Assembly: GCA_964016885.1 (NCBI GenBank)
Contig: CAXHJY010000115.1
Span: 22,947-86,946 of the forward strand
Source of the DNA: Eledone cirrhosa
Lineage: Eukaryota
Length of the DNA: 64,000 bases
Direction of reading: 5' to 3'
Shown: in pieces, positions 9,263 through 61,775 of the stretch
How the letters are laid out: the number at the start of each line of letters is the position of its first letter
Numbering within the stretch: position 1 is the stretch's first letter
Program-made: the position numbers and the translations under genes
Notes under the pieces: generated by a model
Seen by the model: the letters and a program-made list of their open reading frames with translations, nothing else
The model's database searches: none
What the model was told of the DNA's origin: nothing

Positions 9263-9297
<35 letters not shown>

Positions 9298-9409: not shown

Positions 9410-9453
<44 letters not shown>

Positions 9454-10459: not shown

Positions 10460-10460
<1 letters not shown>
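9563..10460 (-). mobile_element. Internally deleted mariner (Tc1/mariner) transposon with ~100-bp TIRs and TA target duplication
   Basis: TA|CGAGGTGTGTCAGAAAA...TTTTCTGACACACCTCG|TA; transposase has the HTH region (MSRSRVFKWCKRFKEGR, SGRPST, RKVCAKVVPK) and VITGDELW joined directly to GTRFEDVDDIK. Confidence 0.93.

Positions 10461-10517
<57 letters not shown>

Positions 10518-10521
<4 letters not shown>

Positions 10522-11167: not shown

Positions 11168-11172
<5 letters not shown>
10518..11172. mobile_element. ~630-bp non-coding cassette between (TA)n tracts with terminal direct redundancy
   Basis: AAATGAGAGGTATAGAGATTGTTTTA occurs at both 10518 and about 11147. Confidence 0.55.
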
Positions 11173-11243
<71 letters not shown>

Positions 11244-11245
11244 TG

Positions 11246-11296
11246 AGATTCTACAGGACTAGAACTGTTTCATTCTTTAGAAATCATCAGGAATCT
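11246..11296 (-). ncRNA. Type I hammerhead ribozyme inside palindrome 11239-11347
   Basis: Minus strand reads AGAUUC-CUGAUGA-UUUCUAAAGAAU-GAA-ACAG-UUCUAGUC-CUGU-A-GAAUCU: stem I 6 bp, stem III 4 bp, GUA cleavage triplet, U-U pair at 10.1/11.1. Confidence 0.8.
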
Positions 11297-11421
11297 GATG
11301 ATTTCTAAAGAATGAAACAGTTCTAGCCCTGTAGAATCTCATCTATATTAAAACTTTTATACTCTGCAATGTATTGAGTACCTTACTTACTGTGGTTACC
11401 TCCGATTCAACCCGGAATAAC

Positions 11422-11580
<159 letters not shown>

Positions 11581-11612
11581 AAAGAATAGAGGTGTAACAC
11601 ACAAGTTATTAT

Positions 11613-11995
11613 ATATTGGTAAACGGAATAGAAAATGCTGACAAATTGTTCACAGTTGAAAAATGGTTTAATTAGGAATAAAAGAGTATTAGTGATTGTA
11701 TGGGTTAGTATTCAGTTGTGGTTTTAAGTTTTTAAGTTTTTACCGGTTGCGCATTTCTAAATGCTTTTCAAAAATAATTTTGAGATAGAGTGTCCGTGCG
11801 GATCAGAGCAAACAGCACGGACACTCTATCTCAAAATTATTTTTGAAAAGCATTTAGAAATGCGCAACCGGTAAAAACTTAAAAACTTAAAACCACAACT
11901 GAATACTAACCCATACAATCACTAATACTCTTTTATTCCTAATTAAACCATTTTTCAACTGTGAACAATTTGTCAGCATTTTCTATTCCGTTTAC

Positions 11996-12003
<8 letters not shown>
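11613..12003. repeat. Apparently perfect inverted repeat with ~185-bp arms and a 15-nt spacer, in a (TA)n-bounded cassette
   Basis: ...GAGATAGAGTGTCCGTGC ggatcagagcaaaca GCACGGACACTCTATCTC...; arms match out to TATTGGTAAACGG / CCGTTTACCAATA. Confidence 0.93.
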
Positions 12004-12082
<79 letters not shown>

Positions 12083-22500: not shown

Positions 22501-25500
22501 TGTGTCCGGGATGATGCCGGTGTACTTAGTGTCACGAATAATCAGAAAAAGGAGGCCTGGAAATGTCATTATGAGAGACTGATGAATGTGGAGAACGAAT
22601 GGGAGAGAGAGAAATTACCCTTGGTGGATCCGACAGAGGGACCAGCTATTGAAATTGATGAATATAGGGTCCAAGAGGTGATTAGGGAAATGAAAAATGG
22701 TAAGGCTGCCGGACCATCGGGAATAGTTGCTGAGATGCTGAAGGCATCAGGGGACGTAGGCACTAAACTGGTTGCACGCATCATCAATCAGGCTATATAT
22801 GGTGGTGTCATACCCAAAGACTGGTGCAGCAGTATTCTCATAAATTGCTACAAAGGTAAAGGGGATGCTTTGGAGAGGAGCAATTATAGGGGTATAAAAC
22901 TGATAGATCAGGTTATGAAAGTGGCAGAAAGGATTTTAGCACAACTAATTAGAGAAAGGGTCAAACTAGATGAGATGCAGTTTGGTTTTGTGCCTGGGAA
23001 GAGTACAACAGATGCCCTCTTCTTGGTGAGACAATTGCAAGAGAGGTTCTTAGAGAAGAATAAGCTACTATACTTAGCCTTTGTTGACCTAGAGAAGGCC
23101 TTTGATAGGGTACCCCAATCTGTCATCTGGTGGTCCCTAAGGAAGCTAGGTGTTGAGGAATGGCTTGTGAGGACAGTGCAAACTTTGTACAGAGGTACTC
23201 TCAGTAAAGTCAGGGTAGGAATGGAGTTTAGTGAGGAATTCCAGATACAAGTAGGCGTACATCAGGGTTCGGTCCTCAGCCCGCTCTTGTTCATTATAGT
23301 CCTCCAAGCCATAACAGAGGAGTTTAAGACTGGCTATCCATGGGAACTTCTCTACGCTGACGATCTGGTTCTGAGAGCAGAATCAGTAGAGGAGCTAGAG
23401 AATAAATTCTGGCTATGGAAACAGCAGTTGGAAGCAAGAGGACTGAGAGTGAATCTAGCTAAGACAAAAGTGTTGATGAGTAGAAAAGAGGACAAAACCC
23501 TGATTCCGTGAGGGAAATGGCCATGTTCGATATGCAGAAAAGGAACTGGCATAAATTCTATAAAATGCACACAATGCAGATCCTGGGTACACAAGAGATG
23601 TAGCGGGATAGCAGGCAAACTAACAGGTAGGGAGAAATATGTATGCAGTAGATGTACAGGGAAATTAGACAGTAGAAGTTGCATTGATAGACACATTTTT
23701 CAAATGCAGGAGGGCGCTATAGAAGTGGTGGATAGCTTCCGGTACCTAGGAGATCAGATTAGCATGGGAGGAGGGTGTTCCGAGGCCATAGTATCTAGAA
23801 TAAGGACGGGTTGGAAGAAGTTTAGGAAGCTGCTTCCTCTGTTGACGAAGAAGGGTTTCTCCCTGCGTACGAAAGGCCGGTTGTATGAAGCCTGTGTGAG
23901 GAGCGCGATGCTGCATGGTAGTGAGACATGGGCAGCAACTGCAGAGGATATGCGACGGCTGGAGAGAAATGAGGCAAGCATGCTCCGTTGGATGTGCAGT
24001 GTAAATGTGCGTGAACGACCCAGCATAAATGTGTTGAGAGAGAAACTGTGTCTGAGACGGATAGAATGTAGTGTACGCGAGAGGAGACTGAGGTGGTATG
24101 GACATGTGATGCGCATGGAGGATGACCGATGGGTGAAGAAGTGCCAGGAATTGCCAGTTGAAGGAAGACGTGGTAGAGGTAGACCACAAAAAACATGGGC
24201 GGAGGTGGTGAGAACAGACCTCAGATCATTGAAGCTCACGGTGGAGATGACGAGGGACCGTGATGAGTGGAGAGATGCTGTGCTGAATAAGACCCGTCCC
24301 ACCCTTGCAAGCAGGGAAAAGCGGACGTAAAATGATGATGATGATATATATTCAATTGAATCTGACTCTAATCATTGTATTTCTTTTTAAGTGGTAAACT
24401 TTATCTATTACCTTGTTTAACCATCTGATCCTTGGATGCTTTCAACAGAATCCACTTTGCTGCTAGCATTTGGGCCAGACCTCCAGTTTGAGGATAACTT
24501 TATCCTTACACCTTTAGATTCTCTTGAAAAATAGGTTATCATGGCCACTGCCCACCCTCCCCCTCCTTCATTAAACAGTAATAAGAAATAAAAAGGTTTT
24601 TTTCACATATTTTTCTATATTTTTTTAGGTCTCATATAAAAGTCCTTGTTGCACCTTCTGATAAAAAGGTTCCTTTACCTAAATGTCTCCAGCCACCAGG
24701 TTATACAGATTCCAAGTATGAAGGTCTCTTTGACAATCTACCTGTTCCTTTCCAGCAGCTGGCTAATGCAGTCGTGAACAAAACAAAAGGTGACCCCATA
24801 CTCACATTATTCGTTAATGCACATGCACATACATACATCATGCACACACATACATCATGCAACACACACATGCAGACAACAGTCAGACTCATAAGTAATG
24901 GTTCCTTAATTTTGCCCAACCACTGAGTGGAAAGTTTGATGTTTCAACCTTTCAGTGACAATAGTTCTAAAGAAATTCACTGTTTCAATTAATGAAGATT
25001 TACCAAAATTATTGATTAATTCAATACTAAGATAATATCGTTCTTATACAAAATTACGGTGAAAGATTTCAATTTATTTTAAACACCTTTATAATGAGCA
25101 GGTTTTTTTTTTTTCATAGAACCAGGGACAGGTTTTGTTTGGAGCTGATATCAAAAGGTTTAACTCTTTAGCATTTACATTACTCTATTTTTCCTATTGT
25201 ATTTTTGTGGAAAAAGCTCTAATTTACATAATTATCTCACATAATATTGAATCTATGAGATTTTGATGTTATTTATTTTGAGAACAATACCTTAACATTG
25301 GTATGATCAGCCAGTTATGGCCGGTTTGAACAGAAAGAGATGAGAGAATTCTGGACGGATACAGCTGGTTTAAATGCTAAAGGGTTAAGCAAAAATATTT
25401 TAAATTCCAAACTACTGAGCAACATTTTGATATAGATGTCAACAAAACATCCATGCTCCTGCATAGCGTAGGAGGAATGCTGCTCACAAGACACTTGCCC

Positions 25501-26433
25501 AAGATGCGACACAGTGAGACGGAACCCATAAACCACATGATTACAAAACAAATTCCTTAACCACACAGCCAGAATTACATCTATTTCTCGTTGTATGTTA
25601 TTGCTGAATTAACTTGGTTTATTATTTCTATCAGAGAGTTATTCCAACCAAACAACAGATATACCAAAGACATCTCCTACAAGAGAAGATGAGGAAAAAT
25701 ATTCAGAAATAACTAAAGACCCCTTTGATGTGATCATCTTTAAGCTACAGTCAGTGTTGGATAAAGATTTGGTGCAGTCTGTGAATTCAATTTACCAATT
25801 CCATATTGTTGGTGAGATTAATAAGAAGTTCATACTAGATCTCAAAAAGGGTATGTATTTACAATTTTGTTTCATCTTTATTCTGTTTAAAACATGTTGT
25901 TGTTGTTGTAGTATTGGTCATAATCCCACTAATGTCAGTTTAACCCTTTTTTGACACCTTTTGGGATGAGTTCTACAACACAAAACTGTTTATCTTAAAG
26001 TGTTTATATTTATCTAAAAACCTTCCCTCACAATTTTATGGAAGAACATTAACCCTTTAGCATTTACATTACTCTATATATACCAAAACTCTCTGCAATG
26101 GGTGTGAAGGATGATCTTTTTAATAATGAGAAAGTTGGTTACATTACTAAATCCCTTGAAATTCTTGGTAGAGAAAAAATTAATATTTATCAATGTCTCT
26201 TTTGTAATATATCTTCAGGTTGTGGGTCTGTGAAATTTGTTGAAACTACAGAAAATCCTGATTGTGCTGACGTTAGTTTGACACTTAACTACAAGGACTT
26301 TATATCATTAATACATGGGCAACTGAAACCTTTAGATGCCTACAAAAATGGTTGTTTGAAAATAACTGGAAATATGTTGGCAGCGCTGAGGATTGAACTT
26401 ATATTAAACAGATTACGAGCTGTCACTTTGTAG
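13993..26433 (+). CDS. STOML1: Stomatin-like protein 1 (SPFH + SCP2), join(13993..14158,14917..15020,15519..15585,16561..16643,17736..17939,19123..19178,24629..24789,25635..25850,26219..26433), 423 aa
   Basis: All introns are GT-AG with consistent phases (1272 nt total). Motifs: FITMPVSLWFSFK membrane hairpin, YERIVIFRLG..KGPG, LPWID..VDMRTKAFNVPPQ, WGVEISRCEL, and SCP2 motif GQLKPLDAYKNGCLKITGN. Confidence 0.92.
14390..14715 (-). mobile_element. CORE-type tRNA SINE in a STOML1 intron
   Basis: Reverse complement of the 46791-47118 element along its whole length. Confidence 0.8.
14917..15020 (+). CDS. STOML1: STOML1 coding exon 2 (hydrophobic hairpin)
   Basis: TTGCAG| ...YLFLFITMPVSLWFSFK |GTAAGT. 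Confidence 0.9.
15519..15585 (+). CDS. STOML1: STOML1 coding exon 3
   Basis: RIPAYERIVIFRLGLMRKAKGP, AG/GT bounded. Confidence 0.92.
15750..15857 (+). ncRNA. Degenerate type I hammerhead-like motif with an extended stem II, in a STOML1 intron
   Basis: TTCCT-CTGAAGA-[long hairpin incl. AATTCTACGGT/ACCGTAGAATT]-GAAAC-ACCAT-GTA-ATGAA, followed by AATAAA; one mismatch in stem I. Confidence 0.5.
15918..16355 (-). mobile_element. RTE LINE 3' end fragment with (ATC)n tail
   Basis: Colinear with 20039-20590 (GCTGGATGCCCTTCCTAACACCAACCACATTTACAGTG ... TAGGCAAGACGGGTC). Confidence 0.8.
16561..16643 (+). CDS. STOML1: STOML1 coding exon 4
   Basis: GFVFFLPWIDQCHIVDMRTKAFNVPPQQ, AG/GT bounded. Confidence 0.92.
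16804..17247. mobile_element. TTAA-flanked (piggyBac-like) MITE interrupted by a SINE
   Basis: TTAA-CCCTTTTATTACC ... GTATCAAAAGGT-TTAA; related pieces near 25100, 37743, 48800 and 51440. Confidence 0.65.
16950..17138 (-). mobile_element. tRNA-derived SINE of a second family (Meta-domain-like body), with 13-bp TSD
   Basis: TSD ATAAAATTATAAT at 16937 and 17139; B box GAGTTCAAATCCC and body TTTGCCTTTCATCCTTACGGGGTCGATAAAATAAAGTACCAG on the minus strand; many more copies in the window. Confidence 0.85.
17736..17939 (+). CDS. STOML1: STOML1 coding exon 5
   Basis: IIIAKGAAIEIGADVYVRV...SISAIVQ, 68 codons, AG/GT bounded. Confidence 0.9.
19123..19178 (+). CDS. STOML1: STOML1 coding exon 6
   Basis: DECNKTTFCWGVEISRCE, TTTCAG| ... 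|GTAAGT. Confidence 0.9.
19230..19465 (+). mobile_element. Old RTE RT fragment
   Basis: Encodes AFVDLEKAFDRV..I.WALRKLGVD with stops. Confidence 0.75.
19516..19927 (-). mobile_element. Second copy of the RTE 3' UTR with (ATC)n tail
   Basis: Nearly identical to 20039-20450, including the internal tandem duplication. Confidence 0.85.
20039..21843 (-). mobile_element. 5'-truncated RTE-clade LINE (RT, PHD-like finger, 3' UTR, GAT-repeat tail)
   Basis: ORF 20822-21763 with VHQGSVLSP, YADD, CSVC..CPKC..HKRC..CGRC, HGSETW; 20544-20912 with WYGHVMR..GRPRKTW. Confidence 0.95.
22075..24345 (+). mobile_element. 5'-truncated RTE-clade LINE with premature TGA at 23509
   Basis: WWN, KNGKAAGPSGI, NYRGIKL, QFGF, DLEKAFD, YADD, RWYGHV; ends in (ATG)n. 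Confidence 0.95.
24629..24789 (+). CDS. STOML1: STOML1 coding exon 7 (linker)
   Basis: Strong pyrimidine tract TTTTTTAG; open in the expected phase (SHIKVLVAP...FQQLANAVVNKTK); AAG|GTGAC donor. Confidence 0.75.
25160..25388. mobile_element. TTAA-flanked MITE (second family)
   Basis: TTAACTCTTTAGCATTTA ... TAAATGCTAAAGGGTTAA; an isolated end also at about 26049. Confidence 0.65.
25635..25850 (+). CDS. STOML1: STOML1 coding exon 8 (start of SCP2)
   Basis: ...LVQSVNSIYQFHIVG...FILDLKKG, |GTATGT donor. Confidence 0.85.
26219..26433 (+). CDS. STOML1: STOML1 last coding exon (end of SCP2)
   Basis: TTCAG| GCGSV...ADVSLTL..DF...GQLKPLDAYKNGCLKITGNMLAALRIE..TAG. Confidence 0.9.
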
Positions 26434-27718: not shown

Positions 27719-29367
27719 AATGAAAAATGGTAAGGCTGCCGGACCATCGGGAATAGTTGCTGAGATGCTGAAGGCATCAGGGGACGTAGGCACTAAACTG
27801 GTTGCACGCATCATCAATCAGGCTATATATGGTGGTGTCATACCCAAAGACTGGTGCAGCAGTATTCTCATAAATTGCTACAAAGGTAAAGGGGATGCTC
27901 TGGAGAGGAGCAATTATAGGGGTATAAAACTGATAGATCAGGTTATGAAAGTGGCAGAAAGGATTTTAGCACAACTAATTAGAGAAAGGGTCAAACTAGA
28001 TGAGATGCAGTTTGGTTTTGTTCCTGGGAAGAGTACAACAGATGCCCTCTTCTTGGTGAGACAATTGCAAGAGAGGTTCTTAGAGAAGAATAAGCTACTA
28101 TACTTAGCCTTTGTTGACCTAGAGAAGGCCTTTGATAGGGTACCCCGATCTGTCATCTGGTGGTCCCTAAGGAAGCTAGGTGTTGAGGAATGGCTTGTGA
28201 GGACAGTGCAAACTTTGTACAGAGGTACTCTCAGTAAATTCAGGGTAGGAATGGAGTTTAGTGAGGAATTCCAGATACAAGTAGGAGTACATCAGGGGTC
28301 GGTCCTCAGCCCGCTCTTGTTCATTATAGTCCTCCAAGCCATAACAGAGGAGTTTAAGACTGGCTATCCATGGGAACTTCTCTATGCTGACAATCTGGTT
28401 CTTATAGCAGAATCAGTAGAGGAGCTAGAGAATAAATTCTGGCTATGGAAACAGCAGTTGGAAGCAAGAGGACTGAGAGTGAATCTAGCTAAGACAAAAG
28501 TGTTGATGAGTAGAAAAGAGGACAAAACCCTGATTCCATCAGAGAAATGGCCATGTTCGATATGCAGAAAAGGAACTGGCATAAATTCTATAAAATGCAC
28601 ACAATGCAGATCCTGGGTACACAAGAGATGTAGCGGGATAGCAGGCAAACTAACAGGTAGGGAGAAATATGTATGCAGTAGATGTACAGGGAAATTAGAC
28701 AGTAGAAGTTGCATTGATAGACACATTTTTCAAATGCAGGAGGGCGCTATAGAAGTGGTGGATAGCTTCCGGTACCTAGGAGATCAGATTAGCATGGGAG
28801 GAGGGTGTTCTGAGGCCATAGTATCTAGAATAAGGACGGGTTGGAAGAAGTTTAGGGAGCTGCTTCCTCTGTTGACGAAGAAGGGTTTCTCCCTGCGTAC
28901 GAAAGGCCGGTTGTATGATGCCTGTGTGAGGAGCGCGATGCTGCATGGTAGTGAGACATGGTCAGCAACTGCAGAGGATATGCGACGGCTGGAGAGAAAT
29001 GAGGCAAGCATGCTCCGTTGGATGTGCGTGAACGACCCAGCATAAATGTGTTGATAGAGAAACTGTGTCTGAGAGGGATAGAATGTAGTGTACGGGAGAG
29101 GAGACTGAGGTGGTATGGACATGTGATGCGCATGGAGGATGACCGATGGGTGAAGAAGTGCCAGGAATTGCCAGTTGAAGGAAGACGTGGTAGAGGTAGA
29201 CCACGAAAAACATGGGCGGAGGTGGTGAGAACAGACCTCAGATCATTGAAGCTCACGGTGGAGATGACAAAGGACTGTGACGAGTGGAGAGATGCTTTGC
29301 TGAATAAGACCCGTCCCACCCTTGCAAGCAGGGAAAAGCTGGCGTATGATGATGATGATGATGATGA
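27719..29367 (+). mobile_element. 5'-truncated RTE LINE, near-identical to 22689-24345, with a long TSD
   Basis: Same ORF but YADN and a 13-nt deletion near 29025; (GAT)n tail; flank 27664-27716 is repeated at about 29390-29441. Confidence 0.95.
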
Positions 29368-30544: not shown

Positions 30545-31675
30545 TTATATAACAGCAATGTTTTAGTTATATTAGTTAGTTTATAATAAAGGGAAATGAC
30601 ATGTTTGTTTTCAAGGACATGACGTGTTAACTCTCACAACAGAAGCTTAGTTACAGAGTTGCATATACAACCAAGCTTAAGAGTTTATTTCAGGTGTGAA
30701 AATACCACAATAACAAGAAGACAATCATTTCTTCAAGGAAACAAACAGATTGAAGTGAATGTAAGTAATTTTTGTTATTCCTTTTCAAGTAGGCACACAA
30801 AACTTGTAAAAAAGTAATGCATATATTATTTACTCTTTAATAACAGAGGGAAAGGCAATACCAAGGGGTCTTTTCGTAGCCCCTGAGCTGGTGGGAAGGA
30901 GAGGAAGGGGTCCTCAAACTGGTGACCTGATCCGAATGCTTGCAACAAAACGGACTCCACTAAAGTCACCAAAGGGCCAGATGTCAGCTGTACAAGTCCG
31001 AGGAAACGAATAACCAAGGAAAGAAAACTAACTTTCATCATGAACTGATGTGTTTATATGATTTTTAGATGGTCAAGAGAGCTTCTTCTTCTCAAACAAA
31101 AGATCTCAAGTGTCAGATTATGCCTCAATTTACGAATAACTTTGACAGTACTTTATGTATTTTATGGAACGGACTTTGTAGGGATGTTTTCAGTATGATG
31201 TAGACTTGCACTGTCTTATCACCCGCAACAATCTGAATCATATTAACCAATGGCTAGGCCCTTATGTTGTCAAGTATTTTGGGTTCCCTTTAACCACTGA
31301 AGTCCTAAGCCACAGGTAACGGTGCCTTAGCCTCGTCAACCTTATGTATAAAACAACCCTAGCGGAAATGCCATGAGAGTCTTGGCTTACCTCAATCTTT
31401 TTTAGGGGGAAACACCAGCATTCCCTGTTGTTAAGTGTAATTGAGTGTACATACTGTCTCTCATTTTCCTGACTGGTTAATTTATATCGAGTTGTTTATT
31501 TTGTAAATTATATTCATTATATAAATTGTGTTTATATGTTTATTATTAATATCATTATCATCATCAACAACACCATTATCATTTCGTTATATACCATTAA
31601 ATAACACATTTTTTTAAAATGACTTACCTTTAAAATCTCTATTAATATATTATTTTTTATAGACTCTCTAAAGAT
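30545..31675 (+). promoter_or_regulatory. Probable TATA box, non-coding 5' exon (donor at 30761) and intron (acceptor at 31662) of the VWA5A-like gene
   Basis: TATATAA near 30547; GAAT|GTAAGT; TTTTTTATAG| 13 nt upstream of the ATG. Confidence 0.5.
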
Positions 31676-33823
31676 ATGGCAAATGTATCTATATTTGGAA
31701 TCATCTGTGAAAAGAAAACAAATGTTTCTCTTCTTTACGCCAAACACACTGTTTCAATTGATGGATTTAGTGCACATGTTAACATCGAGGCTGAATATAT
31801 AAATGAAAGCCAACACAAGACAGAAGCTAAGTTTGTTTTCCCTGTCGAAGAAGACAGTGCTGTGTATAAATTTGAAGCTAAAATTGGTGATGTTCATTTG
31901 ATTGCCAAATCTAAAGACAAAGATGTTGCCCAGAAGGAGTACAAAGAAGCTGTAGAAAAAGGACAGTCAGCTATTTTGTTGCGTGAAACAAGCACATCTG
32001 GGGATATATTTGAATATAGTTTAGGTAATATCCCACCAAAACAAAAGATCAATCTAAAAATATGCCTCGTTTCTGAACTTTCATGCGAAGTTGATGGAGC
32101 AGTAAAGTTTTATACACCTTTTGTTCTTAATCCCAGGTTTGGTCTTTTACCTAAAGATGAAAATTACCAAAAAGCACCAAAGCCAAAGGAATTTAGTTTC
32201 AATGCCTCAATCAAGTGGAATTCACAAATTAAAGATGTCATATCAATACATCCTATTAAGGTTGAATATCAGGATAATAAGTCTCATGCTACTGTGAGAA
32301 TGACAAAGGAGTTTAATTTTGAGAAAGACATCCTTCTCCATATTTACTATGAAGATGTGAAGAAACCACAAGTGATTCTGGAGAAAGGTGATAGAAATGC
32401 TAAAGGAATGTTTTCTAAAGATATTATGATGATAAATCTATTTCCAAATCTTCCCCAAGTGAACTCTTTACCAGCTAATGACTACATCTTTATTATTGAC
32501 CGGTCTGGAAGCATGAGTGGAGAGAAATTTGAAGCTGCTAAAGATACTTTGTTACTTTTCTTGAAAAGTCTACCCCTGGGGTGCTCCTTTAACATTATAA
32601 CTTTCAATAATTACTTCGAAGTTTTGTTCAAAGATGGAAGCCGAGAATATAATGAAGGTTCTCTGAATGAAGCATTGGAATTCCAGAATAATGTTTACGC
32701 AGCTGGTGGAACTGAAATGTTCAAAGCTATTAAATCCCTCTCTGATAAAAAAACAGCTGACAATATTTATCGCCAAGTATTCCTGATAACTGATGGGGAA
32801 GTCTACAACACACATGAAATAATTCAATTGGTCAAAAAGCAAGCATACAACACTCGGTACTTCACGGTCGGTATTGGATCTGGAGCTTCTACAGAATTAG
32901 TGAAAGGTATTGCTCGAGCCGGGAGAGGTCAAGCAGAGTTTGTGATGGCAAATGATGACCTTAAGGCAAAAGTTATACATTTATTGAAATTGTCAATGCA
33001 GCCATTTGTATCTTCAGTTTGTTTCTCTGCTGAAGTTAGTGACAGCAACAAAAAGTTACCCTTCATTTCAGTTCCAGAAAACATTCCTTGTATTTTCACC
33101 GAAGAAAGATTCATTATTTATCTAGTTTTTCCAGAAATTACGTCTGACTGTCAAAATGTTAAACTGAATCTTTCTGGTAAAATTGGTGAATCAGTATTTT
33201 CACTTGACTTTGAAACTAATTTGTTGAATCAGAGAGACAACGAAATGAAAATACACCGTCTTTGTGTGAGAAAGAAAATACAAGAACTGGAACTAAAAGA
33301 AGATTTAGGGAAAGACAATGGCGTAAAATCTGAGATTATTGATCTAGCTACAACTGCTAACTTGGTTTCAAGGTACACAAGTTTTATTGGGTCGGAGAAA
33401 TCATATTCAGTGAAACCCACGACTCGTGAGACTACATCCAAAAATTTTGATACTGGAAAATTTGGAGAGTTGCATAAATTTGACATAATAAAATTCAACT
33501 TCGAGAGTAAAGACAGACTGAAATCTTTGCTTGTCTTACAAACCTTTTCTGGATACTGGGACCTGAATGAGTTTTTAGCAACCATTTTGAAAGAATCCCT
33601 CGATCAACTTAAGCGGACAAAACCAGCAGTAAACGACAATATCTGGGCTACAGCACTTGCAATTGTTTTCTTCAGAGAAAAATTAACATCACAAAAACAT
33701 GAATGGGAGTTAATTGTTGATAAAGCTGTACGTTGGCTGAAGACTCAGAATACACAAACAATTGGATTTGATCAAATAATGACTGACGCTTCACACGTGT
33801 TGAAAACAAAAGTATACACATAA
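31676..33823 (+). CDS. VWA5A: von Willebrand factor A domain-containing protein 5A-like (VIT + vWA), single coding exon, 715 aa
   Basis: VIT: EAKFVFPVEEDSAVYKFEAKI..AQKEYKEAV..SLGNIPP. vWA MIDAS: FIIDRSGSM, GGTE, LITDG. C-terminus LQTFSGYW..IWATALA..WELIVDKAVRWL; AATAAA overlaps the stop. Confidence 0.9.
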   Translation: MANVSIFGIICEKKTNVSLLYAKHTVSIDGFSAHVNIEAEYINESQHKTEAKFVFPVEEDSAVYKFEAKIGDVHLIAKSKDKDVAQKEYKEAVEKGQSAILLRETSTSGDIFEYSLGNIPPKQKINLKICLVSELSCEVDGAVKFYTPFVLNPRFGLLPKDENYQKAPKPKEFSFNASIKWNSQIKDVISIHPIKVEYQDNKSHATVRMTKEFNFEKDILLHIYYEDVKKPQVILEKGDRNAKGMFSKDIMMINLFPNLPQVNSLPANDYIFIIDRSGSMSGEKFEAAKDTLLLFLKSLPLGCSFNIITFNNYFEVLFKDGSREYNEGSLNEALEFQNNVYAAGGTEMFKAIKSLSDKKTADNIYRQVFLITDGEVYNTHEIIQLVKKQAYNTRYFTVGIGSGASTELVKGIARAGRGQAEFVMANDDLKAKVIHLLKLSMQPFVSSVCFSAEVSDSNKKLPFISVPENIPCIFTEERFIIYLVFPEITSDCQNVKLNLSGKIGESVFSLDFETNLLNQRDNEMKIHRLCVRKKIQELELKEDLGKDNGVKSEIIDLATTANLVSRYTSFIGSEKSYSVKPTTRETTSKNFDTGKFGELHKFDIIKFNFESKDRLKSLLVLQTFSGYWDLNEFLATILKESLDQLKRTKPAVNDNIWATALAIVFFREKLTSQKHEWELIVDKAVRWLKTQNTQTIGFDQIMTDASHVLKTKVYT

Positions 33824-38102: not shown

Positions 38103-38148
<46 letters not shown>

Positions 38149-38220
38149 GTCGTCAAGTATGAAATTTGTATAATTTTTTTTTTCTACAAATTTCTACAAA
38201 TTTCATACTTGACGATCCAA
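38012..38220. mobile_element. Two adjacent ~80-bp mariner-like mini-MITEs (hairpins)
   Basis: TA-TTG(G)GTCGTCAAGTATGAAATTTGTA ... TACAAATTTCATACTTGACGATCCAA-T, twice. Confidence 0.7.
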
Positions 38221-38429
38221 TGTGTGTGTGTGTGTGTATGTGTGTGTGTGTGCACTCACTATCCATTTAATTATACCCTGAAGTTAGCACACACACATAC
38301 ACAATCTAAGCACACGTACACAGAAAGACTGTAAAATCACGTACACAACATTTTTTATCCTCGCCCGTTTGTTGGAGATCCCAGCGAAGTCGTATATATA
38401 TATTGGCAGTATCACTAACATAGCATGAC

Positions 38430-38632
38430 TCATAATAAAGGTGTATATGAAGTTATATTACTATATTTATGTACAATGAACACATATATATAAGTCTCGC
38501 TATGAGTATTCTAAACTATTATCATGTTGTCACAGTTATTGAAATAGCTGTGACATGATCACAACTTAAAACATTCATAGCTAGACTTATGAGTGTTTAT
38601 TGTACATAAACATGTTATATACCTTTATTATC
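38430..38632. repeat. Old degenerate palindrome centred near 38540
   Basis: ATAATAAAGGT..TTTATGTACAAT..TCACAGTTATT g AAATAGCTGTGA..ATTGTACATAAA..ACCTTTATTAT. Confidence 0.7.
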
Positions 38633-39941: not shown

Positions 39942-40195
39942 ATGTATACCTTCATATAAACCTTAATTATTAAGGTAGCTATTATGTATGTTCATGATGT
40001 TCATGTTTATATACACACTAGCCGTCAACATCTGAAATCCAGTCAACTAATATACAGACGTCATCCGCTCTATTGTTCCAATAGCTAATACACGTGCTAA
40101 TGTTTATAAACATCCTCTCCATTTAGCATCTATACACCGTTTATTTAATATATATATATTTAGTTATGTAATAAACAACATAAGATAATTATTTC

Positions 40196-40277
40196 ATTTA
40201 CCAGTGGTTTCTTGAAAGCAGATATATCTGTTTTCAGTCGTCAGAATATATCTGCTTTCAAGAAACCACTGGTAAAT
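40196..40277. repeat. Short palindrome abutting (TA)n
   Basis: ATTTACCAGTGGTTTCTTGAAAGCAGATATAT ... ATATATCTGCTTTCAAGAAACCACTGGTAAAT. Confidence 0.85.
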
Positions 40278-40559: not shown

Positions 40560-40683
40560 CAAATAACGAAACGAAATTAAATTTCGTTTCGTTTGTAACT
40601 CACTCTTGTATGACTTTTTAACTTAATTGTTTATTTATATATATTTATATTTATATATATATATTTTTTTATATATATATATA

Positions 40684-40740
<57 letters not shown>

Positions 40741-40879
40741 ATATATAGATAAGTTATTCCGTATTGAATCGGAGGTAACCACAGTAAGTAAGGTACTCAA
40801 TACATAGCAGAGTATAAAAGTTTTAATATAGAAGAGCTTCCACAGGACTAGAACTGTTTCATTCGAGAGAAATCATCAG

Positions 40880-40930
40880 GGTTTCCTGATGATTCCTCCC
40901 GAATGAAACAGTTCAAATCCTGTAGAAGCC
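40880..40930 (+). ncRNA. Type I hammerhead ribozyme inside palindrome 40751-41015
   Basis: GGUUUC-CUGAUGA-UUCCUCCCGAAU-GAA-ACAG-UUCAAAUC-CUGU-A-GAAGCC; same family as 11246-11296 with a different but still paired stem I. Confidence 0.75.
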
Positions 40931-41040
40931 ATTTCTATATAAAATATTTATACTCTGCTATGTATTGAGTACCTTACTTACTGTGGTTACCCTTGATTGA
41001 ACCCAGGATAAACTTATATTATATATATATATATATATAT

Positions 41041-41102
<62 letters not shown>

Positions 41103-41113: not shown

Positions 41114-42031
41114 GAATTAGTATATCTACCAACATATGTATACAGATGTATACTCATGCTAGCAAATATATATGTTATGTTTTAGTACCTTTGTGGTTCT
41201 ATGCAAGGGGATGCAGAACAATTATATGAAAGACGTAAAATAAGAAAATTTTAAAATTAACTTACTTACTAAAATTTTCACTCCAACTAATTAGTTTCTG
41301 TAAGGGAATAAATATAGTTACGCAACGCAACTATAGAGAAATCATTACGTCATCAGGGAGTCTATTCTCAGCTAAGTTCCCAGGCAATGCGCGGACACTA
41401 AAAAATAATAATTCAGTGGATGGAAAAAAGCAAGCGGGGACTAGATTCCAGGGCACTGAAAAAATTCACTGCCTACTTGGTCAGTGGCAAATTCTAAAGA
41501 ATCAATCACGTGACACTGAGGTTAATCAGTGAGAACAATTATATGAAAGACGTAAAATAAGAAAATTGCTAGCATGAGTATACATCTGTATACATATGTT
41601 GGTAGATATACTAATTCTCTATATTTATCTCCAAATTATTTGTTGAGCAAAACTTGCCGAAATTTACTGCTATGGTTCATGGTAGTAGTTAGGCTCTTGT
41701 CTCATCACACTCCACTCCTCACTGATTAACCTCAGTGTCACGTGATTGATTCTTTAGAATTTGCCACTGACCAAGTAGGCAGTGAATTTTTTCAGTGCCA
41801 TGGAATCTAGTCGCCGCTTGCTTTTTTTCCATCCACTGAATTATTATTTTTATATGGGTTCCTAGTGTCTACGCATTGCCTGGGAACTTAGCTGAGAATA
41901 GACTTCCTGATGACGTAAGGATTTCTCTATAGTTGCGTTGCGTAACTATATTTATTCCCTTACAGAAACTAATTAGTTGGAGTGAAAATTTTAGTAAGTA
42001 AGTTAATTTTAAAATGTTCTTATTTTACGTC

Positions 42032-42037
<6 letters not shown>
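41114..42037. mobile_element. Rearranged double-inverted non-coding cassette between (TA)n tracts
   Basis: 41114-41165 is inverted at 41566-41620; about 41222-41532 is inverted at 41717-42037; homologous to 61890-62240. Confidence 0.8.
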
Positions 42038-42090
<53 letters not shown>

Positions 42091-44777: not shown

Positions 44778-45653
44778 TACTTTGAATAGTTGTATCATTT
44801 ATTTTCACCTAACAGTTTGTTGCGTCTACGCGATTTTGTGTTTGTGTTTGTTTTTGTTTTCGTTTTGTTTTGATATGATATGCTGTGTTGCTTCTGTTTG
44901 TCTTTTCTATCTTCTGTCACTTGTGTCGATGAATATATTGTGTAAATATGTTTTAAAACTTTCTTCCTTGCTATTATGTGTCTGGTATTGAAATATTAAT
45001 ATGTAATATTATATGTATCTGAATTGCCTATATCTCTGTATATTTATTGTCTATTATATATATATATATTTTTTTTTTTACCATACTTTATTTTATTTTA
45101 TGGTATTATTTTTTACCCTGTGGAATACATTATGTTTTTATACACGTTTTGTTGACTTTGCATGGTACGTTGGATGTATTTATATTTTTTTAATGTCAAT
45201 ATATTATTTTCATTGATTTTAGTATTGTTTAATCACACCGTCAGGGTGATTATTCTATTATAATGCTTATATTTATATATTTGTGTTAATATGTGTATGT
45301 GTATATGTGTGTGTATATATATGTGTCTGAGTGCGTGTAGATATATATACATATTAAATTTTATTTTTGTATTATGTATTGCATTGTATTGTATATTATA
45401 TTATAATTTTTATATCTTATTTCTCGCATTATATTACTATGTTGTATTTCGAGTATTAGACTTATATTGTACTTTTAACATGGGTTTGTTTAATGTTTGC
45501 TTGCTCTCGTGCCCTATAGTTTTTATTTACAAATGCACCCTATTAGGTTTAACATGTCTTTCCATGATAATTTTCCTAAATTTTCATAAATATCCATTCG
45601 CTATTCTTCTGAATTTTGGCTTGTTCTAGCCGATGATATTTCTTGTCTTTTCC

Positions 45654-45698
45654 TTGCTCTGATGAGTCCCAATTGATGGGACGAAACATTGTCAGCAA
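45654..45698 (+). ncRNA. Canonical minimal type I hammerhead ribozyme
   Basis: UUGCU-CUGAUGA-GUCCCA(AUUGA)UGGGAC-GAAAC-AUU-GUC-AGCAA: all core residues, G10.1-C11.1, GUC site, followed by AATAAA; lies in a T-rich cassette (about 44775-45850) bounded by (TA)n. Confidence 0.9.
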
Positions 45699-45871
45699 AT
45701 AAAGATTTTTAATGTATTAAAGGCTTCTTTGTTAATTTATATAATTTTTCGGCTCTGATTGATAACATTGAGCTATATCTTATACTGTCATTTCTCTAAT
45801 ACGACGAGTGTGTTTAACTCTAATGCACTCAAGTATTTTTATTTTTATCTTTATATATATATATATATATA

Positions 45872-46612: not shown

Positions 46613-46667
46613 GTGAGGTTTTTTTTACAAAATGAAAAATAACCGAGGTGTCCTACACGAGTGAAAG

Positions 46668-46757
46668 TATAAAGAAAAAAAGATGCAATCGAAAATGCAA
46701 CTGGAGTCTTAAATAAGACTCCAGTTGCATTTTCGATTTCATCTTTTTTTCTTTATA
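46668..46757. repeat. Palindrome in a (TA)n-bounded cassette
   Basis: ATCGAAAATGCAACTGGAGTCTTA aa TAAGACTCCAGTTGCATTTTCGAT. Confidence 0.85.
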
Positions 46758-46790
46758 TTTATATATATATATATATATGTATATAATGAA

Positions 46791-48130: not shown

Positions 48131-48267
48131 TATATTAATAAGAGGAATTCCAACTTTGTCTGATTTACTCGTTTTATTTACAATCCTTTAAAATTTATAA
48201 CGGTATTATAAATTTTAAAGGATTGTAAATAAAACGAGTAAATCAGACAAAGCTGGAATTCCTCTTA

Positions 48268-48275
<8 letters not shown>
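48131..48275. repeat. Near-perfect palindrome (~70-bp arms, 5-nt spacer) in (TA)n
   Basis: ...TTTAAAATTTATAA cggta TTATAAATTTTAAA... Confidence 0.9.
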
Positions 48276-53521: not shown

Positions 53522-53570
<49 letters not shown>

Positions 53571-53971
53571 ATATTTGGGGAGGGTCATATTTGCGTAATA
53601 TTGCCAGAATTAATAACAGAACACACTCACTGTTTGGTTGGTTTTCGCTTCTCGCTGTCTTTTATATATATATATCTGCGATCTAACTTACTCGGTCCTC
53701 AATGTTGCCATTGACTGACCGGCGGTCAAAAATAATACAGATACAATATAGACAACATAAACACACACTAGTCACCCAGCAGACACAACACTATACACAC
53801 TAGTCACACATCACACATAACACTATACACACACGCAAACGCATGCGCAAAGAAGACAAAATAAAATAAGATAAACAAACAAGCAAATAAATAAATAAAT
53901 ATATAGACAGACTGAACAAAAAAAATGGCGTAGACATACAACACAACAGGAGGAACAATGAATATAACACC

Positions 53972-54006
53972 ACTGACGATGTTGCAAATGTGCAACGAAA
54001 GATTTA
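53972..54006 (+). ncRNA. Hammerhead-like core in the pLTR (also about 58100-58135 on + and about 7095-7130 on -)
   Basis: CUGACGA-U-GUUGCA(AAUG)UGCAAC-GAAA; stems I and III are not convincingly paired. Confidence 0.45.
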
Positions 54007-54195
54007 TGTAAACTATATATATATGTGTTTGTCTATATTGTATCTGTATTATTTTTGACCGCCGGTCAGTCAATGGCAACATTGAGGACCGAGTAAGTTA
54101 GATCGCAGATATATATATATAAAAGACAGCGAGAAGCGAAAACCAACCAAACAGTGAGTGTGTTCTGTTATTAATTCTGGCAATATTACGCAAAT

Positions 54196-57100
54196 ATGAC
54201 CCTCCCCAAATATAACAATATCTGTTTCGACACACGATTTCATATAAAAAACCTCGCAAAACTAATTCATCGCCGCTATGGCATTAGCTTGTGCCAAGCT
54301 GAAAGGTTATTGAAAGACACTGTTTTCTGTTATATAAAAACTACAATAACAACAGAACAAATCCGCTTCTTAAAACACTGTGTTTCCTCCAAAACATACA
54401 CAACAAACATATCAAAACAAGTAAATAATTTATTATTGAACAAAACACAAGCTGAACGGCTAAAACACACAATAACAGTTAATATGAAAAGAACAACATA
54501 CACAAAAGTCAACGCACTCTACAGACAAAAACGCATCAACGGTAAGGAAATCCGAAATCTCATCACAGCAAACGAGAGAGATGACTTCATGAGCGTCATC
54601 CGACGCGAAACGAAATATGCTCAAAACGAATGCTGTAGGCATTTCAAGAAGAAATTAGAATGGATGAATAAGAAAAAACTACAAGAAAGGAAAATCGAAT
54701 ATTCTCAAAAATACCCAGATAACATCGACAACATCCGTATGAGTGATGTAAAACTACCGGAAGAATTTACCAATGACCACACAGTAAATATCTATGGGAA
54801 CACTTTAATCAGTGAACAAGAACAACAAATCCTAAAGTTACCACCAAAATTTGCCATCTACAAAAAGATTAATCCTATGGAATGCAAAACGGAGCTGGAA
54901 AAGTGTTTCACAAAAATACGTTGGAATGCAAAGGTAAACAACAACAACAATAATAACGGTAGTAGTAATATAAACAATAACTCTGGGTATAGAAATAACA
55001 GCCATAACCATAACAATGGCAGGAAAGTGAGAAATAGTGATAATGGTAATAATACTAGCGATAGACAGAACAACAACAACCACAATAATAATAATAATAG
55101 AAACGTTAACCACAGACACAGCAACAGTGACCACAGTAGTAATAACGGTAACAATACGAACAACAACAACAACAATAACCACAGTGGTAATAATGGAAAT
55201 AGTACATGTAGCAACATCAACAAAAACAAGAAACATAATAATAGTAACAACCACAATGGTAGAAATAGCAGTAACAACAACAACAATAACGGTGAAGTAA
55301 ACAACAATACATCTAGCAATCATAACAATAATAATATTAATGCTAAGGATAGAAACAACAACAACCACCATGATAACAATAATAGCAACACACACAACTA
55401 TGACGATAGAAATAACGACAACCCCTTAGAGAAACTATTTTTCAACCCAGCTGACAAAACATATAAGATGGGTAATATCTATCCTACGAGGTTACCCTTT
55501 AATAAAAGAGTTTGCATACCACAACAAATAGATGACGAGACGGAGGCACAGTTCACCATAGCTAGAAATAAGATTAGACAAGTAGTAGACAGGTACACTA
55601 TGAGACAGAGCAGACCAGAGGCCCAACAACTTGGGATAAAACCTGTAGAAGGCTTGGTTAGCCTCAAGCAGCGCACAAGGGATGGTGAGGTAGTGTGTCT
55701 ACCCACAGATAAGTCTGGTAGGATGTCAATAGATAGCATGCCGAACTACATCGAGGCAATGCAACCCCACATCACCAACACGAGCGAAGTTGCACAACTA
55801 ACACACGATGGGAGAGAAAAAATCCTCAACGCTCACATGATGATGGGGACTGACATCCTAAAGCCAAGCAGACGCACTGCCAACAACTTCCAGGCGTCTA
55901 ACAATGGCATACCACCCTTGTATGGGCTCCGCAAAGACCACAAGACTGTCGACGACCCGACAATAGGACCACCAACAAGACCTGTATGCGGAGCTAATAT
56001 AGCTAGCAACTACAGGATCTCCTACTTCCTCTCAATGGTTATACGCCCCATAATCAAGATGTCCCCAGATGTATGTGAAAGTACAGAGGACCTCCTCAGC
56101 AGAATCAGTGAGTGCAACAAAAACAGGAGCCTATCCAACTGCATAATAGGCAGCATGGATGTGGTGTCACTGTACCCATCCATTAACATTGATTTTGCTG
56201 TGAAAAGATGTGTGGAGATGATCATTGAGAGTGAGGTGGAGTTCTGCGACGTCGACACAGACGAACTGGGCCTCCTACTTAGACTTACCTACGACACTGA
56301 CTACCTAGACAGCCATGACCTTAGATGTTTCTGCCCTAGTAGACCTATAAGAGGTAGACCCCCCACCATAACCTCAATGGCTAAAAAGACTCCCATAGGA
56401 AGGTGGATTGGGTGGACCAAAGCTATACGGACCCCCCAAAACACTGATCAGGTAAGAAAAATGGTCGCACATGCAATAGGGGCTAGTATCAAAACTACCC
56501 TAAAGGGCCACATATTTAAGTTCAATGAGAAAATCTACACCCAAAATGAGGGAGCAGCCATCGGCGTCAGCATAGCTGGCGATGTTGCCAACCTTTTCAT
56601 GGTATGGTGGGAAAGGAGACTTAAAGATCTCCTTAATGAAAGCTCCATAGACCTCATCATGTACTCTCGTTATGTAGACGATATCAATATAGTTATAAGA
56701 ACACCCCCACTAGAGAGCACTAACAAGTTTGATTTAGAACGTAGCACGATGGAAAGCATCCAGCAGATAGCTATTTCCATACACCAGAGTATAACTGTAA
56801 CTATAGACTTCCCTTCCAAACACCCTAACAATAGACTACCTGTATTAGACACAGAACTCTGGATCAACACTATAGACGAGAGAGCCCAAATTCTCCACTC
56901 ACACTATGCTAAACCCATGGCCTCCAAATACCTGATACTCAAAAACTCAGCAATGTCCAGTAGTGCTAAGTTTAATATTCTGATCGCAGATTTGGTACGA
57001 GTGATGAAGAATGTGTCCAGCATGTGCGACCCAACAGAAATGGAAGGACACATCCAACACTTCATCAACCGCATGCAGTTCTCTGGCTACAACCAAAGAG

Positions 57101-57828
57101 ACAGAGTCAGAGTATACGAAGGAGCCATGGAAAAGTATAAGACCCTCATAGAACTGGACATGAAAGGAATTTGCCCACTATACAGGAGCAAATCATGGAA
57201 TAACTTAGATAGGGCTAGACATAAGATAGGGAAGGCCACATCATGGTACGACAACCAGAGATATCAGAGTGTCATGTTTGTGGACGCCACCCCTGGAGGG
57301 AAATTAGCTAACCAGTGTAGAAAGGCCCTGAGAAAGACCCACTTAAAAATAAAGGTGGTAGAAAAGCCAGGAACCACCATAAAATCCCTGATCAGCAAAA
57401 CCTACCCTTTTAAGAAAACCCACTGTACCAATAGGAAATGTATCATATGTAAGGTGAACCCCCGGATAAACTGTAAAACTAGAAACGTAGTCTATAGCAT
57501 AAGATGTACAGAGGGTACTTGCAGAAACACGACAACAACATACATAGGTGAGACAGCTCGTAGCATAGGTGAAAGGATAGACCAACACTGGGGGGAACTA
57601 AAAGGACGAAAAAACGGGTCAGTACTATACGAACATGCTAGACAACATCATGACGGTAACATAGACAACATAGAAATTAGAATAATATCTAAACATAGGA
57701 ATGACCCAGCAGATAGGCAAATCAGAGAGGCCAGTGAAATAGAAATTAGAAGACCAAAGCTAAACAGAAAGAATGAGTGGAACAACAACAACACCCAAAC
57801 AAACAACACTGACCTAAGAGAAGTATAA
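54196..57828 (+). CDS. Penelope-like polyprotein: RT + GIY-YIG endonuclease, with an Asn-rich insert, 1210 aa
   Basis: PTDKSG, PPLYGLRKDHK..PTRPVC, SMDVVSLYPSI, GAAIG, YSRYVDD, LPVLD; VVYSIRC..C..YIGET..RI..H..R..EA..I..LN; no stops. Confidence 0.95.
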   Translation: MTLPKYNNICFDTRFHIKNLAKLIHRRYGISLCQAERLLKDTVFCYIKTTITTEQIRFLKHCVSSKTYTTNISKQVNNLLLNKTQAERLKHTITVNMKRTTYTKVNALYRQKRINGKEIRNLITANERDDFMSVIRRETKYAQNECCRHFKKKLEWMNKKKLQERKIEYSQKYPDNIDNIRMSDVKLPEEFTNDHTVNIYGNTLISEQEQQILKLPPKFAIYKKINPMECKTELEKCFTKIRWNAKVNNNNNNNGSSNINNNSGYRNNSHNHNNGRKVRNSDNGNNTSDRQNNNNHNNNNNRNVNHRHSNSDHSSNNGNNTNNNNNNNHSGNNGNSTCSNINKNKKHNNSNNHNGRNSSNNNNNNGEVNNNTSSNHNNNNINAKDRNNNNHHDNNNSNTHNYDDRNNDNPLEKLFFNPADKTYKMGNIYPTRLPFNKRVCIPQQIDDETEAQFTIARNKIRQVVDRYTMRQSRPEAQQLGIKPVEGLVSLKQRTRDGEVVCLPTDKSGRMSIDSMPNYIEAMQPHITNTSEVAQLTHDGREKILNAHMMMGTDILKPSRRTANNFQASNNGIPPLYGLRKDHKTVDDPTIGPPTRPVCGANIASNYRISYFLSMVIRPIIKMSPDVCESTEDLLSRISECNKNRSLSNCIIGSMDVVSLYPSINIDFAVKRCVEMIIESEVEFCDVDTDELGLLLRLTYDTDYLDSHDLRCFCPSRPIRGRPPTITSMAKKTPIGRWIGWTKAIRTPQNTDQVRKMVAHAIGASIKTTLKGHIFKFNEKIYTQNEGAAIGVSIAGDVANLFMVWWERRLKDLLNESSIDLIMYSRYVDDINIVIRTPPLESTNKFDLERSTMESIQQIAISIHQSITVTIDFPSKHPNNRLPVLDTELWINTIDERAQILHSHYAKPMASKYLILKNSAMSSSAKFNILIADLVRVMKNVSSMCDPTEMEGHIQHFINRMQFSGYNQRDRVRVYEGAMEKYKTLIELDMKGICPLYRSKSWNNLDRARHKIGKATSWYDNQRYQSVMFVDATPGGKLANQCRKALRKTHLKIKVVEKPGTTIKSLISKTYPFKKTHCTNRKCIICKVNPRINCKTRNVVYSIRCTEGTCRNTTTTYIGETARSIGERIDQHWGELKGRKNGSVLYEHARQHHDGNIDNIEIRIISKHRNDPADRQIREASEIEIRRPKLNRKNEWNNNNTQTNNTDLREV

Positions 57829-58744
57829 ATAAATAAGTAAATTAAATTAAATAAAATAAGATAAATAAATACATACACAAGCACATAAACACACACTAGT
57901 CACCCAGCAGACACAACACTATACACACTAGTCACACATCACACATAACACTATACACACACGCAAACGCATGCGCAAAGAAGACAAAATAAAATAAGAT
58001 AAACAAACAAGCAAATAAATAAATAAATATATAGACAGACTGAACAAAAAAAATGGCGTAGACATACAACACAACAGGAGGAACAATGAATATAACACCA
58101 CTGACGATGTTGCAGATGTGCAACGAAAGATTTATGTAAACTATATATATATGTGTTTGTCTATATTGTATCTGTATTATTTTTGACCGCCGGTCAGTCA
58201 ATGGCAACATTGAGGACCGAGTAAGTTAGATCGCAGATATATATATATAAAAGACAGCGAGAAGCGAAAACCAACCAAACAGTGAGTGTGTTCTGTTATA
58301 TATTCTGGCAATATTACGCAAATATGACCCTCCCCAAATATAACAATATCTGTTTCGACACACGATTTCATATAAAAAACCTCGCAAAACTAATTCATCG
58401 CCGCTATATATATATATATAGTGAAGAAGTCAGAGGAGTTGATGCGAGAGGTGGAGACTGTTGATGAGTGTAGGGCTGACAATGAACGAGAGTACGACGA
58501 AGTATCTGGTAGAGAACATGAAGGAGCCAGAGAAAATGATGAATGTTAGGGGGAGGGGGTGTAGAGCTGGTTGAAGACTTCCTGTATTTGGGAGCAAAGA
58601 GGATGATGTAGAGAGAGAGAGTGGAGAGATAGGGACAGACTAACAGAGACAGATAGACAAAGACAGATAGAAAGAGAGAATGGTCAGAGACACAGAAGAG
58701 ATAGAGGCAACATAGATAGATAGATACATAGATAGATAGATATG

Positions 58745-61700: not shown

Positions 61701-61775
61701 CGACCGATTAAACCTTTGAGGCTATTGCACCCCTCTCTATCGGGTCAGGCCCCTACGTAGTCCCAGCGTGCATCT
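58745..61775 (-). mobile_element. 5'-truncated, frameshifted Tx1/L1-clade LINE inserted in (GATA)n
   Basis: APE end (YLDR..YSDQ, GYWKLN), RT (NFRPITLLN, LDQSKAFD, RQGCPLS, AYADD), GGLG, zinc-knuckle remnant EETVAHALVHC; AATAAA at the 3' end; ATAG repeats on both sides. Confidence 0.9.

Follow-up and report, generated by a model that had tools for sequence, protein, structure and literature searches.

Penelope-like elements typically leave head-to-head inverted copies with palindromic junctions (PMC3846280; PMC8557442), and their insertions are biased to (TA)n (PMC8557442). Their hammerhead ribozymes sit in terminal repeats (Cervera and de la Pena 2014, PMC4209133), and in Penelope as it occurs in Drosophila virilis the 5′ end of helix I coincides with the end of an intron (PMC4209133). 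Derivation from Penelope-like ends has been proposed for the animal non-LTR retrozymes (PMC7229834; bioRxiv 10.64898/2026.07.22.740005). For the Poseidon element PAc of Anolis, in vitro experiments showed that both strands are cut and extended, and the enzyme is predicted to be dimeric (Frangieh et al. 2024, PMC11167929). In that system cleavage was dispensable, an internal start lay downstream of the ribozyme, the target was AT-rich, and uncut RNA served as the template. How Penelope-like inverted repeats arise and what the hammerhead does are posed as questions in PMC8557442 and PMC3846280.

We analysed a hammerhead-bearing palindrome at 40.8 kb of a 64-kb stretch of DNA, called the window throughout. 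Its family shows what is expected of Penelope-like copies, namely 5′-truncated units in direct or inverted order with a palindromic head-to-head junction, and, as in a terminal repeat, a hammerhead with a downstream tail whose 3′ end is fixed. The head-to-tail tandem typical of retrozymes is absent from the 40.8-kb locus and was seen in raw reads of one public run (X21) and one contig of another (X1). On balance, we think that the palindrome arose when two 5′-shortened copies of a high-copy, hammerhead-bearing repeat end, one from each of two subfamilies, were put together head to head within a TA microsatellite, Penelope-like machinery being the likely agent.

The palindrome at 40.8 kb and its hammerhead motif

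The palindrome is 265 bp long, has a 4-nt spacer and is inverted at CUGAUGA. Its arms, at 40753-40880 and 40885-41013, measure about 130 nt each, with 40880/40885 as the innermost pair (Table 1). TA runs lie on both sides, and a target-site duplication is not readable inside the left one. A 45-nt block in the right-arm tail is identical in both arms. The earlier note had described arms of this length inverted at CUGAUGA and related to a cassette at 11.3 kb; we located the arms and find 83-92% homology. The tail ends in a stem-loop that folds alike in 3/3 tails, with z-scores of -1.7 to +0.5 against shuffles. Being no better than shuffles, it was rejected as a structured element. Kinship of the tail to the stretch at 6.8 kb was also rejected, with no match at E 1e-4.

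Table 1. Positions of the palindrome's parts, of other features in the window, and of alleles marking another subfamily
Feature	Position	Strand	Remarks
Left (TA)n-rich target flank	40620-40750		bounds approximate
Left arm	40751-40880	-	core (C3 = 40879), stems II and III, G17 at 40841, tail to ~40753
Head-to-head junction	40878-40887		AGG, spacer GTTT (40881-40884), CCT; microhomology of 3 nt, or a mini-hairpin
Complete type I hammerhead motif	40880-40930	+	predicted cut after 40924
Stem I 5′ strand GGUUUC	40880-40885	+	plus arm
CUGAUGA	40886-40892	+	plus arm
Stem II	40893-40904	+	plus arm
GAAA	40905-40908	+	plus arm
Stem III	40909-40923	+	plus arm
A17	40924	+	plus arm
Stem I 3′ strand GAAGCC	40925-40930	+	plus arm
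Right-arm tail	40931-41015	+	weak terminal stem-loop; ends at TA run
Right (TA)n target flank	41016-41100
Sister palindrome, same family	11237-11421		inner pair 11290/11295, 4-nt spacer
Unrelated hammerhead family, head-to-head	40160-40275	-	CUGACGA at 40244; in-window comparison
Third hammerhead family, head-to-head pair	41223-42040		cores 41356 (minus), 41907 (plus)
Palindrome, 1-nt spacer	6685-6870		GAAA, 6-bp stem III, GUC; core 5′ half missing
Solo ~660-bp unit in (TA)n	10509-11172	-	35-bp direct repeats at both ends
Canonical minimal hammerhead, not inverted	45652-45700	+	G10.1-C11.1, GUC
Penelope-like element stretch	53563-58407	+	truncated copy 6887-9192 (-)
Subfamily allele	40766		3% X1, 57% X3
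Subfamily allele	40773		25% X1, 91% X3
Subfamily allele	40819		5% X1, 78% X3
Subfamily allele	40820		0.4% X1, 78% X3
Subfamily allele	40835		2% X1, 38% X3
Uninterrupted 725-codon frame	31646-33823		VIT and VWA domains
Short frame	26053-26433		SCP2 domain
Presumed mariner-like and LINE-like features, in this order	9559-10464; 20627-24345; 27719-29362; 59736-61744

The plus arm carries the complete hammerhead that the earlier note had assigned to it, with all core parts, a 6-bp stem I of GGUUUC/GAAGCC and a NUH cut site. One stem I pair is U.G, stem II is weakened and opens with U10.1.U11.1, and stem III closes with 4 bp a loop that lacks the family's CUAG palindrome, so that 6, 3 and 4 bp can form in stems I, II and III. 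The type I core (CUGANGA, GAAA, NUH) is intact in this arm and broken by G17 in the minus arm. The minus arm, as had also been proposed, has G at 40841 and no stem I 5′ strand, the hexamer upstream of its core being unable to pair. The G10.1-C11.1 pair, which is usual though not universal, is replaced by U.U in 4/4 arms; U.U at this place is a natural hammerhead variant (PMC3088659).

Performing folding calculations, we obtained -5.3 kcal/mol for the hammerhead fold of the plus arm vs -7.3 for the best fold of the same 51-mer. The probability of stem I was 0.0025 in the isolated arm with its tail and 0 within the palindrome, which as a whole folds into a hairpin of -161 kcal/mol. In place, the ribozyme is predicted to have no active fold and to be buried in this long hairpin. 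The loop III dimer duplex reached -11 to -13 kcal/mol in three arms and -4.7 in the plus arm. A small hairpin lies over the cut site and the stem I 3′ strand in both stem I classes (40921-40939 and 11330-11347), with 2 and 7 of 200 shuffles equally good; if formed, it would compete with the active hammerhead fold.

A hammerhead descriptor found 8 cores in the window, compared with a mean of 0.16 (maximum 1) in 50 block shuffles, which argues against chance. One further match, at 16827, is probably chance and was left out of the count. Rfam gave no family at the gathering score in the window, only hairpin-type chance matches, and hammerhead models were absent from the 9 matches at E<=10. Searching with a 30-nt motif returned 0 metagenome loci. 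A looser core pattern returned 7 metagenome and 2 viral loci, which we rejected as chance since none had stem III, the cut site or the tail.

The window is AT-rich and animal-like, with many microsatellites, LINE-like ORFs and short repeats. From their motifs, we take a ~140-bp repeat (5294-5437 and copies, at least 10 in the window) to be SINE-like, an element with 109-bp inverted ends to be mariner-like, and several reverse-transcriptase frames to be LINE-like. It also holds at least four other hammerhead families and a full Penelope-like element. The sister palindrome at 11.3 kb has stem I AGAUUC/GAAUCU on its minus arm; its arms differ at 1/54 pairs, and the left arm is short and fused to (TA)n. 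The unrelated palindrome at 40.2 kb is joined 1-4 nt upstream of the core, matches at 28/28 ungapped pairs, and likewise has a short second arm fused to (TA)n; its hammerhead has a long stem II opening with C.A. In the 41.2-42.0-kb pair we find a long stem II, a palindromic loop III, a GUU triplet and rearranged pieces between the cores. The hammerhead at 10846 folds well (0/200 shuffles as good), and its copy starts about 325 nt upstream. Judged by eye, the centre of the 6.7-kb palindrome may be stem-loop II from the 3′ half of a hammerhead; as the palindrome has neither CUGANGA nor a hammerhead fold, it was not accepted as a hammerhead and was left out of the pair count below.

We considered the window's Penelope-like element (54175-57828) as the parent of the family and rejected it, as it has a different ribozyme and no DNA similarity and belongs to another family. 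A PDB search with its protein gave two weak reverse-transcriptase matches only; Pfam had no match for the whole ORF, and part of it matched RVT_1 below threshold. Further palindromes in the window, mostly TA-flanked, have no recognisable hammerhead (4590-4669, 11610-12004, 18024-18111, 38144-38221, 38447-38628, 46665-46760, 48131-48275). They are candidates for MITE-like elements or ribozyme-less Penelope-type stubs.

The family in public runs and its strand switches

We surveyed the family in 4 of 23 public runs (X1, X3, X6 and X21), using the minus arm (40751-40885) as the reference. Matches were found to 10,536 of the 17.1 million contigs of X1, 8,094 of the 17.6 million of X3 and 36 of the 8.3 million of X6; of the 12.5 million raw reads of X21, 6,669 matched. 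With 8,000-10,500 contigs in each of two organisms, the family is large. A stands at position 17 in 98-99.5% of the depth, and the G17 at 40841 is thus private decay. CUGAUGA, GAAA, stem III and loop III showed no variants among the 40 of 102 substitution entries listed. Four loop II positions are hypervariable, being non-reference at 13-79% in X1 and 14-99% in X3.

Stem I occurs in two classes. The first pairs AGAUUC with GAAUCU, and its 3′ allele at 40837 accounts for 75% in X1, 57% in X21 and 0.1% in X3. The second pairs GGCUUUC with GAAGCC or GAAGCU and has one bulged U; GGCUUUC was the commonest loose end in X1 and X3 among the 24 of 395 loose-end entries listed. The GGUUUC of the plus arm is a one-base variant of this second class. 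Since the substitution entries hold no haplotypes, allele linkage rests on the run-level pattern and on two complete copies in the window.

Compensatory change between GGUUUC/GAAGCC and AGAUUC/GAAUCU had been taken as a sign of selection on the fold in the source elements. Both pairings are indeed there, but the 5′ strand of the class is GGCUUUC, not GGUUUC, and in an alignment of the four window arms, two of which lack a true 5′ strand, stem I covariation was not significant (two double changes were reached by 119/500 shuffles). The claim finds its support instead in the family data, that is, in the paired classes, the variable loop II and A17, which support a fold conserved in the source elements at the family level. 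Stem I covariation amounts to about one subfamily split and not to many independent events. Cleavage probably mattered in the source, because the cut-site base and the core are conserved across the family.

In X21, we also noticed a tandem with a monomer of ~78 nt, covering reference 40816-40880 with the whole hammerhead inside (51 reads, 11 starts). It is possible that this is a very small retrozyme-like satellite. One X1 contig holds a head-to-tail copy breaking at C3.

We then checked where copies switch strand. The joint entries listed (15 of 38, 13 of them strand switches) carry no spacers, and their contigs may not be independent insertions. Among the 13 strand switches listed, one side lies at 40864-40880 in 12 and at 40876-40880 in 9. 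Counting contigs of X1 and X3 together, both sides fall at 40876-40880 in 28/41. In X21 the same holds for 196/363 reads (11/22 starts), and one X6 contig has the same head-to-head join in a third organism. This clustering gives p values of 8e-12 to 4e-6 on the listed entries, with assumed null shares of 0.19-0.33, and of 5e-6 to 0.047 if the 23 further joint entries were all single contigs elsewhere, the worst case being the null of 0.33. The reference ended 5 nt past the core in letters foreign to the family, so that position 40880 collects every longer copy. In 20/41 contigs, one arm ends inside the reference, at 40863, 40876 or 40879, and the class ending at 40879 matches the join of the 11.3-kb palindrome.

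Head-to-head copies are a minority. In X1, 28 contigs switch strand vs 312 loose ends that run past the core into unlike sequence. Loose ends of X1 and X3 lose agreement, falling to 0.42-0.47, after about 6-10 letters upstream (24 of 395 entries listed). In X21, the commonest upstream letters are conserved for at least 13 nt, and many copies extend further. Both classes have a 3-bp inverted repeat with a 4-nt loop over the first bases of the core (CAG/CTG in one, AGG/CCT in the other).

Within the window, 3/5 scorable head-to-head hammerhead pairs join no more than 8 nt from C3 (11.3, 40.2 and 40.8 kb, from two unrelated families). The other two have their joins at a distance from it: the pair at 41.2-42.0 kb is joined 177 nt or more upstream of the core, and the full element at 53.7 kb at +56 and about -217 nt. 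The inversion point that the earlier note saw as shared is therefore real in the 28/41 contigs and three window loci, but it is not universal and is partly an effect of the reference edge. On the simplest reading, the 5′ edge of the core is a hot spot for 5′ ends generally, and the inversion uses it.

Origin of the two arms

The two arms of the 40.8-kb palindrome are only 84% alike, 20 of 129 columns being different; between its minus arm and the plus arm of the 11.3-kb copy, 10 of 127 columns differ. Of the 20 differences, 12 are family variants among the 40 of 102 entries listed, and the other 8 are absent from those entries. Three of the 12 (40762, 40763 and 40841) are private to the minus arm. 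The remaining 9 are alleles of another subfamily, several of them rare in X1 and common in X3 (Table 1); on the plus arm they are spread over its whole length, 40758-40866. Each arm extends to the end of the tail, and 3/4 arms of the two palindromes stop at a microsatellite ~90 nt beyond the cut site. A self-copying cDNA yields identical arms; two templates or a later replacement of a whole arm are thus needed at 40.8 kb. With different subfamily alleles and full tails on both arms, this locus is not a simple fold-back. The fold-back that had been proposed for both palindromes fits those at 11.3 and 40.2 kb, which have near-identical arms, one of them short.

In the two-template insertion that we favour, a Penelope-type enzyme would nick both strands in (TA)n, and reverse transcription would be primed on each strand from a separate RNA. 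Both cDNAs would begin at one and the same end of the tail, ~90 nt beyond the cut site, pass the uncut ribozyme, and terminate within the core's 5′ edge or immediately beyond it, in the stem I 5′ strand, a hot spot at which cDNAs of this family would stop. Their 3′ ends could then anneal via AGG/CCT, or CAG/CTG in the other class, followed by fill-in. The palindromes at 11.3 and 40.2 kb would be the one-template version, a self-primed fold-back on the mini-hairpin with a short second arm. An RNA start, a splice acceptor, release by stem pairing in the cDNA, and short master copies are candidate causes of the stop; AG precedes the stem I strand in both classes. Several points weigh against this account. 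Besides the reference edge, the two window pairs with distant joins and the longer X21 copies noted above, a later gene conversion of one arm might explain the single locus, and a protein-coding partner of the family was not found within the 64-kb window.

The helices of the ribozyme might themselves end and re-prime the cDNA, the complement of a stem 5′ strand pairing with the earlier copy of the 3′ strand, leaving the RNA and so priming the inversion, a process that could be combined with the two-template insertion. Joints from 40876-40880 to 40805-40818 (7 contigs) could be stem I fold-backs of the more diverged class, and the centre of the 6.7-kb palindrome resembles hammerhead stem-loop II by eye, in a motif that, as noted, does not fold as a hammerhead. 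We find such re-priming doubtful, since the 11.3-, 40.2- and 40.8-kb joins use microhomologies that are not ribozyme helices and none of the listed joints falls at the stem I 3′ strand (~40835).

A single cDNA may instead have served as its own template after folding back at the AGG/CCT mini-hairpin, with one arm overwritten later by conversion or recombination with the other subfamily. The junction geometry (3 bp, 4-nt loop) is the same as in the 11.3-kb palindrome with its 1/54 mismatch, junctions of this kind have been read in print as products of self-priming (PMC3846280), donor copies are plentiful, and the two arms share four near-centre alleles against the 11.3-kb copy (40833, 40837, 40865 and 40867). 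The subfamily alleles would, however, require the entire plus arm to be replaced, and each arm has a full tail, unlike in the identical-armed palindromes at 11.3 and 40.2 kb, where one arm is short. We thus consider this history unlikely.

It is very improbable that ribozyme cleavage makes the RNA end at which the inversion occurs, although the conserved cut-site base and core would suit it. At 39-44 nt upstream of the predicted cut, the 40.8-kb join can hardly owe its position to catalysis, and both arms read through the scissile bond. Only 1/13 listed strand switches touches the cut site (40842, one contig), and catalytic mutants left insertion unaffected in the one element tested (PMC11167929). 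The link between ribozyme and inversion suggested by the earlier note looks like one of position or structure, as the ends of copies tend to fall in the 5′ strand of stem I, where a 3-bp mini-hairpin supplies microhomology, and not like one of catalysis.

A MITE with a TA target and an incidental hammerhead is a still fainter prospect. Inverted TA-flanked arms, and the other TA-flanked palindromes in the window that have no hammerhead, would agree with it; against it, most copies are non-palindromic (see the X1 counts above), there are several centres in place of whole inverted-repeat units around a fixed one, the arms come from different subfamilies, and head-to-tail forms exist. Long palindromes in TA runs are prone to artefact, yet a chimeric fold-back read from library or assembly can practically be dismissed, because the arms differ by family alleles and comparable joins are found in raw reads as well as in contigs from three organisms.

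Returning to the two-template insertion, we tentatively extend it, with somewhat less than even confidence, to a general rule: Penelope-type integration would use two RNA templates, one per nicked strand, cDNA would generally stop at the hammerhead's 5′ edge, its stem I strand, which may be an RNA start or a splice acceptor, and the locus would be a fossil of a two-template event. With G17 in one arm and damage to stem II and loop III in the second, the locus itself is probably dead; a read-through RNA is predicted to form a ~130-bp hairpin, not a ribozyme. It is probably inert debris, an example of a mixed-arm head-to-head insertion and of a 5′-end hot spot at the ribozyme. In a family so large, with diagnosable subfamilies, mixed- and identical-arm palindromes can be counted and junctions mapped to the base, and such counts could separate two-template priming from self-priming without bench work. 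If our reading is true, mixed-arm palindromes centred on hammerheads would give a genome-scale readout of the integration mechanism.

Comparison with known systems

The head-to-head architecture is published. Our literature search did not find junction clustering at the hammerhead or two-template arms in print, though supplements and the 2005/2006 reviews may state them; the accessible portions of PMC6765202, PMC2377424, PMC8969392 and PMC6962438 state neither. The Penelope-like insertions described by Arkhipova et al. (2013, PMC3846280) and Craig et al. (2021, PMC8557442) share with this locus the palindromic head-to-head join, the microsatellite target, the lack of a readable duplication, and the order of hammerhead then tail. 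The 40.8-kb locus differs from them in having no coding sequence and in consisting of two ~130-nt stubs. Here, the joins also cluster at the 5′ edge of the ribozyme, and the arms come from two subfamilies, unlike simple self-priming.

The hammerheads of PMC4209133 are, as here, of type I, mostly single copies genome-wide, and form variable families with compensatory changes; opposite-strand pairs and a palindromic loop III that allows a dimer are also common to both. The 40.8-kb motif departs from them in its short stem II opening with U.U instead of G10.1-C11.1 and in a real 4-bp stem III. Its two cores stand 6 nt apart, compared with 100-700 bp in the pairs described there.

Animal non-LTR retrozymes (PMC7229834; bioRxiv 10.64898/2026.07.22.740005) are likewise non-coding with a type I hammerhead. 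In contrast, the 40.8-kb locus is inverted, not tandem, its unit is shorter than their ~300-nt monomers, and it is known from DNA alone. The accessible main text of PMC11167929 gives no account of how inverted copies or junctions form. The internal start, the AT-rich target, the two-strand extension and the uncut template of PAc (PMC11167929) all fit the anatomy of the 40.8-kb palindrome.
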